Shown here piece after piece: positions 51,850 to 54,001 of a stretch of 64,000 nucleotides of DNA. The notes under the pieces were generated by a model. That model saw nothing but the letters and a program-made list of their open reading frames with translations. It was not told where the DNA came from and ran no database searches. The stretch is taken from NCBI GenBank assembly GCA_964344235.1, contig CAYFMJ010000002.1:96001-160000 (forward strand). Direction: 5' to 3'. The translations under genes were made by a program, and so were the position numbers. Source of the stretch: an uncultured Methanosarcinales archaeon. GTDB taxonomy: Archaea; Nanobdellota; Nanobdellia; Woesearchaeales; GW2011-AR9. The first letter of the stretch is position 1, and the number at the start of each line of letters is the position of its first letter.

Positions 51850-51997
51850 TTAACTATCACCTCTTTTTTTTAAGGGTCCTATGACGGGTTCCCTTATAGT
51901 TTCCTACTATTATTTTTTTATTTATATGTCTTTTGTTTTTTATCCGTCTATTTTTATAGCAAAAACTTAATAAAAGGGTTAGCGGTTTTCTGTGTAT

Positions 51998-52177
51998 CCC
52001 CTCTTAGTTTAGCTTGGCTAGAACGCTCCGCTGTGTGTTCTTAGGAAACTGAGAACAGGCGAGAGATAAGTTCACTGTTGGACTAAGCCTTTAGGGCTCT
52101 GGATGAAATACAGCCAGTGGGGACGGAGAGACATCTTCGGATGCTTCAAATCCCCGGTTCAAATCCGGGAGAGGGGA
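51998..52177 (+). tRNA. tRNA-Tyr(GTA) with three BHB introns (35/36 inside the anticodon, 37/38, 45/46)
   Basis: Exons 51998-52034, 52064-52065, 52123-52130 and 52150-52177 give CCCCTCTTAGTTTAGCTTGGCTAGAACGCTCCGCTGTAGACGGAGAGATCCCCGGTTCAAATCCGGGAGAGGGGA. C1-G72 and A73 are archaeal Tyr identity elements. The BHBs of introns 1 and 3 are fully paired. Confidence 0.85.
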
Positions 52178-52831
52178 CTCCGAAGGCAGGGTGTGCGTTC
52201 TCACCCTTGCCTTCACATATTTTTCAATTTTTTCTTGTTTTCTAACACAATAAAAACCAATTTCTTTGTAGAACTTTTCTATGTCTTTGATCACAATTGC
52301 GAAAACATTTCTTTTTGCACCAAATCCCGATTTAATAGTGTTCTCTATTCCGAATTCAGAGATCATTTTTTGTACTTGTTTTAGGCCTTTGAAATTGATT
52401 GAGTAGAGTCTTAAAATTAATCTTCTTCCTTCTGGGATTACACTCCCCTCGTCGTCGTATAGGGCTTTTAAGAACTCACGCTTGATGCTTTTACTAGCTT
52501 CTATAATTTCTTTTGGAACGGTCCAAGTCCTAGAGAAGTAATCACAGTAACTCTTAAGATCTTCATATGCTAATTTTGACCTAACTCTTGCGTAAGGAAG
52601 AAGCTTGCCCGTTTTTCCGGATGGCTTGAGTGCAACAACCGGTTTTAGCCCATAAACATTGTCTAAGTCATCAACAAACTGTTGTAGTAATTCTGGGTCT
52701 GTGATGTCATATTTAATGTTGTAATCAGTTCGGCACTTGTAAGCACAACCATCGCCAATCAAGTGAGCGATTAGCCTTGCTTTAGCTTCTGTTAACTCTT
52801 TGAAGCCGGGTTTTAGTCTCTTGATTCTCAT
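52091..52831 (-). CDS. Free-standing two-motif LAGLIDADG homing endonuclease
   Basis: Motif 1 ARLIAHLIGDG, motif 2 EFLKALYDDEGSV, RLYSINFKGLKQV. The C-terminal ~30 codons run antisense through tRNA-Tyr. Confidence 0.85.
   Translation of the reverse strand: MRIKRLKPGFKELTEAKARLIAHLIGDGCAYKCRTDYNIKYDITDPELLQQFVDDLDNVYGLKPVVALKPSGKTGKLLPYARVRSKLAYEDLKSYCDYFSRTWTVPKEIIEASKSIKREFLKALYDDEGSVIPEGRRLILRLYSINFKGLKQVQKMISEFGIENTIKSGFGAKRNVFAIVIKDIEKFYKEIGFYCVRKQEKIEKYVKARVRTHTLPSESPLPDLNRGFEASEDVSPSPLAVFHPEP
52182..52214. terminator. Strong hairpin immediately 3' of tRNA-Tyr
   Basis: GAAGGCAGGGTG/CACCC(T)TGCCTTC followed by T-rich sequence on the + strand. Confidence 0.5.
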
Positions 52832-52936
52832 ACTTGAATCTTGAATTTTAATATTTATAATTTCTATTAGTACTTGTCTAGTGGGTTGTGACTACACTTT
52901 CAAAACACTTAATAAATCGAGTAACTTGTCCATTCT

Positions 52937-53575
52937 GTGAAATACAAACTAATCATTTTTGACATGGACGGAGTTATCTTTCGAGATGTTAATTTTTGGT
53001 TAAGGGTGCATGAAGTATTTGGTACGTTAGAAAAAGGTAAAGTTCTGACAAAACAATATTTACATTCTGATTACGCAAAGCTTGTTGAGGAAGTTGTTGT
53101 AAAGTTATGGAAAGATAAAGATGCAACACCATACTTTGAGCTTGTTAATTCGTTAGAGTATTTACCTGGTGTAAAAGAAGTATTTGAATTTATTAAAAAA
53201 CAGGATTTATTGACGGCAATTGTCTCCGCTTCTAGCATTGATGTAGCACGGAGAGTGCAAAAGGATTTTGGGGTGGACCATTTATTTGCGAATGAATTGG
53301 TGATTCGGGAGAATCGTGTTACAGGAGAGTTTTTATGGCCGATTGCGCAGGGAAATGAGAAAAAAGCTGAGATTATTCGTCATCTCTGTCAAGATCTAGG
53401 AATAAAGCCAGAAGAAGTTGTCTATGTGGGTGATTCTGATAAAGATATTGAAGCGTTTAAGGAAGTAGGATTGTCGGTAGCGTTTAATTCAGATTGTGAG
53501 GAGTTGAAAGCTGTGGCGACGCATATTGTGGATAGTGATAATTTAGCAGATGTTCTTCCATATATTGCAAAATAA
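52937..53575 (+). CDS. HAD hydrolase, phosphoserine phosphatase-like
   Basis: IFDMDGV, IVSAS, FANEL, KAEII, YVGDSDKD, GLSVAFN. Confidence 0.85.
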   Translation: MKYKLIIFDMDGVIFRDVNFWLRVHEVFGTLEKGKVLTKQYLHSDYAKLVEEVVVKLWKDKDATPYFELVNSLEYLPGVKEVFEFIKKQDLLTAIVSASSIDVARRVQKDFGVDHLFANELVIRENRVTGEFLWPIAQGNEKKAEIIRHLCQDLGIKPEEVVYVGDSDKDIEAFKEVGLSVAFNSDCEELKAVATHIVDSDNLADVLPYIAK

Positions 53576-53884: not shown

Positions 53885-54001
53885 GGGCCGGTAGCTTAGC
53901 TTGGTAGAGCGCCTGACTTTTAGCAAAAAACAGGAGTTTTTTGAAACTTCCTGCCGAAAGTAATCAGGCGGTCGCGAGTTCAAATCTCGTCCGGCCCACC
54001 A
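53885..54001 (+). tRNA. tRNA-Lys(TTT) with one canonical 37/38 intron and an encoded CCA
   Basis: Intron 53923-53962 (40 nt) with a perfect BHB helix CTTT/AAAG; acceptor GGGCCGG/CCGGCCC-A-CCA. Confidence 0.95.

Follow-up and report, generated by a model that had tools for sequence, protein, structure and literature searches.

The closest described counterparts of the element considered here, a free-standing LAGLIDADG endonuclease gene that converges on an intron-rich tRNA-Tyr gene, are the homing endonucleases of the I-DmoI type, which are encoded within archaeal bulge-helix-bulge introns of rRNA genes. The gene lies in a 64,000-nucleotide (nt) stretch of contig CAYFMJ010000002.1 (assembly GCA_964344235.1, positions 96,001 to 160,000; hereafter the window) from an uncultured archaeon placed in the Woesearchaeales. 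In common with I-DmoI, its product is predicted to possess a single-chain, two-domain fold, an Asp or Glu residue before the final Gly of each motif, and an archaeal host, and in two of its relatives, designated L027 and L030, the open reading frame (ORF) resides in an intron that would be removed by the protein splicing endonuclease. It differs in that the host gene specifies a tRNA rather than an rRNA, the intron in question splitting the anticodon between positions 35 and 36 (35/36), and in that the window gene itself is located outside the intron, on the opposite strand, with an identity to I-DmoI of ~22%. Archaeal tRNA introns have been reported to range from 11 to 129 nt in length (PMC4090602), a range far outside of which the 644-nt, ORF-bearing intron of L027 falls.

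A second point of comparison is provided by the collaborative, or trans, homing of phages, as described for F-CphI, which is encoded beside the psbA intron, and for T4 mobE, which is associated with the nrdB intron (PMC2988022, PMC2790892, PMC6083498). As in those systems, a free-standing endonuclease gene adjoins a gene with an ORF-less intron, the endonuclease gene and the intron appear to be inherited together, and the existence of intron-encoded and free-standing forms of one lineage fits the proposed route by which mobile introns originate. In contrast to the phage systems, the introns here are protein-spliced bulge-helix-bulge introns of 18 to 32 nt rather than self-splicing group I introns, the hosts are cellular archaea, the enzyme belongs to the LAGLIDADG family, and both cleavage and immunity are presumed.

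Two further systems share individual features with this locus. The replacement-end cassettes of the Allomyces atp6 type, found in fungal mitochondria, resemble seven related loci in which the insert carries its own tRNA-Tyr 3′ end and the resident end is orphaned past the stop codon; the duplicated piece is, however, part of a tRNA rather than a coding end, and the window copy is without an orphan. T4 SegB, a GIY-YIG enzyme encoded in a tRNA gene cluster (PMC2330249), is likewise a free-standing homing endonuclease inherited with a tRNA gene region, but it belongs to another enzyme family, has a phage host, and is associated neither with introns nor with a single tRNA partner across phyla.

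In light of the evidence presented below, we consider it probable that the window gene encodes a single-chain, I-DmoI-like LAGLIDADG homing endonuclease and that the homing site of its clade is the tRNA-Tyr gene of DPANN archaea. The best reading of the locus is that of a tRNA-Tyr-targeting homing endonuclease, free-standing here, which would travel with ORF-less introns, since a rare, conserved, and intact gene is associated with one partner gene in three phyla, occurs in intron-encoded and free-standing forms, and is accompanied by displaced tRNA ends and companion introns.

An intact LAGLIDADG gene convergent on tRNA-Tyr

The two-motif ORF at positions 52091..52831 (minus strand) is intact, specifies 246 amino acids, and matches the Pfam family PF14528 (LAGLIDADG_3) with a score of 42.7 bits against a cut-off of 22.5. 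Its endonuclease core of 205 residues (52215..52831, minus strand), as delimited by the PF14528 match, the lengths of its homologs, the invariant catalytic residues, and an AlphaFold model, is uninterrupted, and every family-invariant residue is kept. Both motifs are closed by an acidic residue and a Gly, LIGDG (D27-G28) and YDDEG (E128-G129), and these four residues are invariant in an alignment of 40 homologs. A search of a large protein collection returned at least 120 homologs that are 47 to 67% identical at a query coverage of ~84%, all of them from Nanoarchaeota/Woesearchaeota-type metagenome genomes and nearly all 202 to 212 residues in length (about 206).

The AlphaFold model, for which the 40-sequence alignment served as input (pLDDT 94.2, pTM 0.90), comprises two alpha-beta-beta-alpha-beta-beta-alpha halves with the secondary-structure elements in the expected order. 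The solved structures that resemble it most are those of I-DmoI (TM 0.62-0.75) and of the endonuclease domains of inteins, and a Foldseek probability of 1.00 was obtained for I-DmoI, for the endonuclease domains of TliVMA and PI-PfuI, and for I-SceI; a sequence search of the PDB returned a weak intein match (E = 0.005) together with chance matches. On the basis of its family, fold, and invariant residues, the protein looks catalytically active and would be expected to cleave DNA. A TATA-like box, TTATAAATA (52852..52860, minus strand), is situated 21 to 29 nt upstream of the endonuclease ATG and is proposed as its promoter element from archaeal promoter spacing.

The gene converges on a tRNA-Tyr(GUA) gene of 180 nt (51998..52177, plus strand) that is interrupted by three introns: intron A (29 nt, 52035..52063), which separates anticodon positions 35 and 36; intron B (57 nt, 52066..52122) at the canonical 37/38 site; and intron C (19 nt, 52131..52149) at 45/46 in the variable loop. 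The preliminary description of this locus had recognized an intact LAGLIDADG gene with both acidic catalytic residues, convergent on an intron-rich tRNA-Tyr gene, and the family match, the invariance of D27 and E128 in 40 homologs, and the opposing strands of the two genes bear out both observations.

Linkage of the endonuclease clade to tRNA-Tyr

The genomic context of the clade was assessed at 27 loci, namely, the window, G383, and 25 fetched loci of the close clade (41 to 64% identity, species-representative genomes). At all 27, distributed over three DPANN phyla, a tRNA-Tyr gene adjoins or holds the endonuclease gene, which is located downstream in the same orientation at 16 loci, is convergent at 8 (including the window), is divergent at 1 (L015), and is contained within the tRNA gene at 2. 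Where co-oriented, the gene starts ~85 nt downstream of the tRNA, after a trailer hairpin and a conserved A+T-rich spacer. At L015, it lies upstream of tRNA-Tyr, divergent from the tRNA promoter, with a 49-nt direct repeat of promoter-like sequence at its flanks, an arrangement that represents a third way to insert without breaking the tRNA unit. More distant LAGLIDADG_3 genes of the same phyla are located away from tRNA-Tyr. The endonuclease tree places convergent and co-oriented forms apart from each other, although its basal split is unsupported (20/15), and orientation therefore appears to have changed rarely, the gene travelling with its context.

The gene itself is sparsely distributed, being present in 4 of 41 relatives, in 1 of 24 other genera of the same family, in 5 of 401 class genomes (from different families), and in 1 of 201 genomes of the class to which the Micrarchaeota host belongs. 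Decayed members of the clade also occur, as L031 retains a 98-residue frame and L032 matches residues 1 to 143 only. This distribution is that of a selfish element; the proteins nonetheless share 47 to 67% identity.

Two more distant LAGLIDADG-like frames were noted in the same genome, at C1:276988-277563 (L002, 34%) and at C6:11463-11672 (L003, 30%), the latter being a partial match ~1.3 kb from a tRNA-Phe gene with a short intron. LAGLIDADG relatives with 23 to 33% identity were furthermore found in the candidate phyla radiation (CPR)/Patescibacteria (L042-L086), where 23 loci lie downstream of tRNA-Lys(UUU), 22 of them on the same strand. The 15 such loci that were checked all have a frame that stays open from inside the tRNA or from just beyond it (at L043, which was read in detail, the ATG is one base past the tRNA-Lys end), and no duplicate of the tRNA end follows the gene at the tRNA-Lys-linked loci. 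These relatives represent a second, bacterial, tRNA-linked clade.

Intron-encoded relatives, displaced tRNA ends, and an empty site

In L027 (Micrarchaeota), the endonuclease ORF occupies a 644-nt intron at position 35/36 of tRNA-Tyr. The splice motif (boundary marked by ^) is formed by a 5′ exon ending in GGCT GT^ and a 3′ side reading GGCC AT^AG, with a GGCT/GGCC central helix, GT^T and AT^A bulges, and an 11-base-pair (bp) outer helix; its geometry, its position, and the 2-nt exon that follows are identical to those of window intron A, the window version being ORF-less. A 49-nt intron at 37/38 comes next and holds the stop codon of the ORF, and the spliced product is a tRNA-Tyr. In L030 (Aenigmatarchaeota), the ORF lies between the 5′ exon end CTGT and the 3′ exon start AAA-CCGGT, with a relaxed splice motif (three of four central-helix pairs) and a spliced product that forms a cloverleaf. 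Because the intron-bearing gene is the sole tRNA-Tyr 5′ half found in each of these two genomes, the insert must be spliced out. The bulge-helix-bulge intron-encoded form is true of L027 and L030, the window gene being positioned outside the tRNA and on the other strand.

A further trace of insertion is an orphan tRNA-Tyr 3′ end directly after the endonuclease stop codon, which is present at L010, L011, L018, L022, L023, and L024, while at L007, a convergent copy, the same 24-nt tRNA end is found at both sides of the gene. Identities of the orphans at these seven loci range from 14/14 to 24/25, and the longest start at approximately positions 42 to 46, which is the site of intron C. At L022, the T-stem of the orphan differs from that of the working tRNA, which indicates that the insert arrived with a tRNA end of its own and that the resident end was displaced by it. 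The uninserted state is represented by the relative G009, in which tRNA-Tyr is followed after 48 nt by the gene for a HAD-family hydrolase (Pfam match) with no endonuclease between them; since the corresponding HAD gene (52937..53575, plus strand) forms the right bound of the insertion in the window, G009 shows the empty site.

Direct repeats of a tRNA 3′ end around inserted DNA are also what integrases classically leave when they insert DNA into tRNA genes (reviewed in PMC4033280 and PMC4090602), and the gene might conceivably be carried as a passenger by a larger integrative element whose attachment site is the 3′ end of tRNA-Tyr, in which case the endonuclease would have no part in the linkage. 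We regard this as very improbable, as only a ~0.7- to 0.8-kb endonuclease cassette, with no integrase, lies between the repeats, both neighbors of the window gene are host genes whose neighborhood is kept in the endonuclease-free G009, and two members of the clade reside in an anticodon-loop intron rather than at the 3′ end.

Introns with and without the endonuclease gene

For a comparison of introns, tRNA-Tyr was parsed in 38 relatives. All 38 carry an insert of 49 to 60 nt at 37/38, whether the gene is present or not, and the variable loop is a plain 5 nt in each of the 33 relatives that possess neither the gene nor intron A, 21 of which have an intron in the T-arm. Intron A is restricted to three of the four gene-positive relatives (G000, G023, and G033, G032 being the one that lacks it) and to G025, whose contig ends 135 nt past tRNA-Tyr. 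Across the class sample, the 35/36 intron occurs in 3/5 gene-positive versus 3/396 gene-negative genomes, counts that are not corrected for phylogeny and, given that the genomes are related, overstate independence. The intron A pattern identified five true tRNA-Tyr genes in this sample, those of G000 and G383, which have the gene, and those of G211, G251, and G371; G374 is the third gene-positive genome with intron A, in a form missed by the pattern.

On these counts, the association of the 35/36 intron with the gene is far beyond what chance would predict. Approximately 16 of the 25 fetched loci carry intron A. Its geometry is shared by 21 of 22 loci, and the central helix varies by compensatory changes (CGCT/GGCG, GACT/GGTC, and GGCT/AGCC). 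The loci at which the 45/46 intron was seen all have the gene or intron A (the window, G023, L007, L011, L026, G025, G211, and G251). The pattern suggests that the 35/36 and 45/46 introns are tied to the endonuclease lineage, whereas those at 37/38 and in the T-arm show no dependence on the gene.

The preliminary description had put forward the endonuclease as a possible cause of the dense tRNA introns seen here. That explanation does not extend to intron density in general, because the 37/38 intron is universal among the relatives and T-arm introns occur in 21 of 33 gene-negative ones. Its narrower proposal, that the endonuclease carries small introns along, is supported by co-occurrence for the 35/36 and 45/46 positions and is not supported for 37/38, where all relatives have the intron.

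A missing stop codon and an antisense tail

The members of the endonuclease family usually end near KIEKYV(K), and the window protein is ~39 residues longer. As first described, the ORF has no stop at this point and continues through a hairpin and the 3′ part of the tRNA to the 37/38 intron: the C-terminal read-through (52091..52214, minus strand), defined by the sequence and by homolog lengths, consists of ~39 codons and a TAA stop (52091-52093) inside intron B, and it runs antisense across the trailer hairpin, tRNA-Tyr positions 38 to 73 together with intron C, and a portion of intron B. The ORF of the closest homolog, L007/P0002, is ended by an in-frame TGA in the hairpin arm; the same TGA is present in the window, one base out of frame.

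The 246-residue product is also encoded on contigs of the runs ERR2281799, -800, -801, and -803, which were obtained with two assemblers, and the window is matched exactly by five contigs over 981 nt and by a sixth over 907 nt. Because identical, independent contigs derive from four runs and two assemblers, the read-through is genuine in the sampled population and is no assembly slip, and these contigs stand in for the read support that the preliminary description had called for at the missing stop codon. Antisense-tRNA tails are likewise present in the homologs P0004, P0006, P0010, P0013, P0020, and P0113, with motifs such as SPLPDLNRG or PPPGFEPGT that represent the translated antisense of the tRNA T-arm. 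As six other homologs read into antisense tRNA, the tail seems to be tolerated and recurrent in the family.

The missing stop may be understood as a side effect of an arrangement in which the C terminus of the endonuclease abuts the tRNA unit. The one-base register difference in the hairpin arm would put the TGA out of frame, and the G+C-rich antisense tRNA would then offer no stop before the A+T-richer 37/38 intron is reached.

Proposed route of homing and its weaknesses

In the ancestral or an alternative form of the element, the gene would have resided within a bulge-helix-bulge intron at 35/36 of tRNA-Tyr, as it does in L027. In the form seen here, it is a free-standing gene between the trailer hairpin and the HAD gene, convergent on a tRNA that keeps an ORF-less, 29-nt 35/36 intron and a 45/46 intron. 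The enzyme is envisaged to cut tRNA-Tyr alleles whose anticodon-arm or variable-arm DNA is uninterrupted, after which the break would be repaired from the endonuclease-bearing allele and the endonuclease gene and the nearby small introns would be copied together (collaborative homing), the interrupted allele being spared. That the enzyme cleaves DNA, where its target lies, and that the introns confer protection are inferred.

A wider proposal, which we advance tentatively and which falls a little short of being probable, is that archaeal tRNA introns at non-canonical positions can be mobile DNA driven by a dedicated homing endonuclease. According to this proposal, the clade would have homed into tRNA-Tyr across at least three DPANN phyla and would there have seeded the introns at 35/36 and, probably, at 45/46, initially in an ORF-bearing state of ~650 nt and later as ORF-less introns of 18 to 32 nt left behind or beside a free-standing copy.

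Several observations weigh against these proposals, in addition to the overstated independence of the co-occurrence counts. No orphan tRNA-Tyr 3′ end was found beyond the window gene (52832-52936), and the lost stop codon could be an early sign of decay. The three gene-negative class genomes with a 35/36 intron (G211, G251, and G371) have no endonuclease in the available flank, that of G211 and G251 amounting to ~0.5 kb, and a tblastn search for endonuclease remnants in the flanks of these three genomes and of G025 returned none. Conversely, L008, L010, L024, and L025 possess an intact gene with the 37/38 intron alone and neither the 35/36 nor the 45/46 intron; introns are thus not needed for coexistence with the endonuclease, immunity by intron cannot be the whole mechanism, and the four loci argue that immunity can also come from elsewhere. 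Furthermore, because the 37/38 intron separates 35/36 from 45/46 in the DNA, one 20-bp target cannot span both sites in this order of archaea. Co-transfer of the 37/38 intron with the endonuclease is suggestive only and constitutes a weak point, since the 37/38 introns most similar to that of the window belong mostly to genes with a 35/36 intron, but that of G002, which is without it, scores equally high.

Two rejected candidates may be recorded here. A 15- to 16-nt similarity between 52901-52916 and 51960-51974, considered as an orphan in the window, is promoter-like and was not counted, and a KYIGF-like remnant read by eye in G251 was not confirmed.

Collaborative homing, as originally suggested for this locus, is in our view supported in part, by the tRNA-Tyr linkage (27/27), by the intron-encoded relatives, and by the co-occurrence of the 35/36 and 45/46 introns with the gene (35/36 in three of four gene-positive relatives, as well as in the class comparison given above). 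Homologs in unrelated contexts, which would have spoken against it, were not encountered among the close-clade loci.

An endonuclease that arrived as proposed might also have reached the end of its life cycle, in which case it would no longer move or cut; the lost stop would then mark the onset of decay, and the introns beside the gene would be relics. The stop missing at the family's usual end, the lack of an orphan tRNA end in the window, the single sequence fixed in all contigs of the sampled population, the decayed members L031 and L032, and the persistence of the 35/36 intron without the gene in G371 are all compatible with such a history. It is nevertheless unlikely, given that the 205-residue core is uninterrupted with all invariant residues kept, including both catalytic positions, that six homologs also read into antisense tRNA, and that a TATA-like box lies at the expected distance.

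Splicing of the tRNA-Tyr gene and a possible helper function

The tRNA-Tyr gene was solved by hand and then checked by splicing in silico. Its exons (51998-52034, 52064-52065, 52123-52130, and 52150-52177, plus strand) include a micro-exon of 2 nt, A36 G37 (52064..52065), and the spliced 75-nt product folds into a cloverleaf that ARAGORN calls as tRNA-Tyr(GTA), with a D-arm like that of known archaeal tRNA-Tyr and a perfect T-arm. The C1-G72 pair and the A73 of the product are identity elements by which tRNA-Tyr is recognized in archaea. Because its 5′-half pattern occurs once in the genome (and not at all in a reversed control), this is the only tRNA-Tyr gene of the genome. Upstream of it lies a promoter-like sequence, AAAAACTTAATAAAAGG (51962..51978, plus strand), and a similar box is situated ahead of the HAD gene (52901-52919, plus strand), both being proposed from sequence features.

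Intron A is bounded by a bulge-helix-bulge motif with a CGCT/GGCG central helix, GT^G and AG^A bulges, and a TGTTCT/AGAACA outer helix. Intron C, whose motif was read by hand and supported by folding since the automatic intron tally splits the window's 45/46 intron wrongly, has a GGAG/CTTC central helix, AG^A and AA^A bulges, and a CATC-ttcg-GATG hairpin, and its removal restores the variable loop AGATC known from relatives. Intron B, the assignment of which was based on splicing in silico and on the insert at the same site in relatives, harbors C/D-box-like or kink-turn (k-turn)-like motifs (AGAUAAG, UGGA, and GGAUGAA). Its 5′ splice bulge is canonical once intron A is out; at its 3′ site, the GU-rich helix (GTGG:CUGU) is weak owing to a competing decoy helix, and no clean bulge-helix-bulge motif could be derived for this site in genes that also carry the 35/36 intron.

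The decoy, located at the end of the intron (52113-52122), consists of CAG and 3 nt, CAGTGGGG, and is also present in L009, L011-L013, L015, L016, L018-L021, and L031, all genes with the 35/36 intron. Its pairing with tRNA positions 29 to 34 (27 to 34 in the window) is in competition with the anticodon stem and leaves the canonical 3′ splice motif weakened; where the 35/36 intron is lacking, a clean GCAG helix takes the place of the decoy. In the 37/38 introns of the 38 relatives (L096-L134), a variable stem-loop is enclosed by motifs that resemble C/D boxes or k-turns (xGAUGx ... xxGA ... GGAUGA), and by analogy with the tRNA-Trp intron of other archaea, this intron may be a guide-RNA-like or L7Ae-binding element. 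Further tRNA-Tyr introns in relatives are located in the D-loop (L091, a locus of G011), in the 5′ strand of the anticodon stem (L029), at 53/54 (L022 and L023), and in the T-loop (L007 and many others), with up to four introns per tRNA-Tyr gene in related genomes.

The weak 3′ splice motif of the 37/38 intron could require a helper, and LAGLIDADG maturases are established for organellar group I introns. The window protein might, on this account, be a domesticated maturase-like or DNA/RNA-binding factor, kept for the expression or ordered splicing of a tRNA-Tyr precursor with a split anticodon and a 2-nt exon, which would also be compatible with its tight linkage to tRNA-Tyr, its co-occurrence with the 35/36 intron, and its strong sequence conservation. 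Such a role is, however, distinctly unlikely: both catalytic acidic residues are invariant, the gene was not found in ~99% of the class genomes searched although tRNA-Tyr is universal, and the 35/36 intron and the gene each occur in the absence of the other (the intron alone in G371, the gene alone in L008, L010, L024, and L025). The orphan tRNA ends and the spread over three phyla are, moreover, signatures of DNA mobility, and bulge-helix-bulge splicing is the task of a protein endonuclease, a single gene for which is present in the genome (C13:3077-3337).

Past the 3′ end of tRNA-Tyr lies the trailer hairpin (52182..52214, plus strand; ~12 bp, loop TGCGTTC), followed by T-runs (52223-52247, plus strand) that overlap the last endonuclease codons on the other strand. 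A hairpin with a CGTTCT-like loop and a subsequent T-run is found 2 to 6 nt past tRNA-Tyr whether or not the gene is present (G002, G003, G004, G005, G008, G010, G012, G017, G018, G021, and G211; L103-L126 and L140). Because it trails tRNA-Tyr in endonuclease-free relatives, it belongs to the tRNA unit and not to the inserted gene.

Standard tools fare poorly at this locus. ARAGORN with default settings reported no tRNA in the whole 64-kb window, and when introns were allowed, it returned a His(gtg) call for the tRNA-Tyr locus, which is false, as the spliced product is Tyr(gta). The Rfam tRNA model did not find the tRNA-Tyr gene at the gathering or the E-value threshold; a tRNA-Lys gene (UUU according to ARAGORN; 53885-53998) with a 41-nt intron is the sole tRNA of the window detected by Rfam at the gathering threshold. 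Routine annotation would badly undercount the tRNAs of the window, and genomes of this group may be scored as lacking tRNA-Tyr, since standard finders miss it or call it His.

Implications for the gain of archaeal tRNA introns

The gain of tRNA introns in archaea, above all at non-canonical positions, is debated, with proposals that include “transposition” without a known agent and a protective role of introns, which would shield tRNA genes from integrating elements (PMC4090602, PMC4033280). Within the collection of literature searched, no paper was found that describes an endonuclease gene within or next to an intron of an archaeal tRNA, a result that is no proof of novelty. The clade described here supplies a concrete agent and a test system, comprising a lineage seen at one tRNA gene only, examples inside the intron, beside the tRNA gene, and converging on it, orphan scars, and two restricted intron positions. 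Collaborative homing, known from the group I introns of phages, would thereby be extended to the protein-spliced introns of cellular archaea and, if true, would represent the first mechanism with sequence evidence for the gain and spread of protein-spliced tRNA introns.

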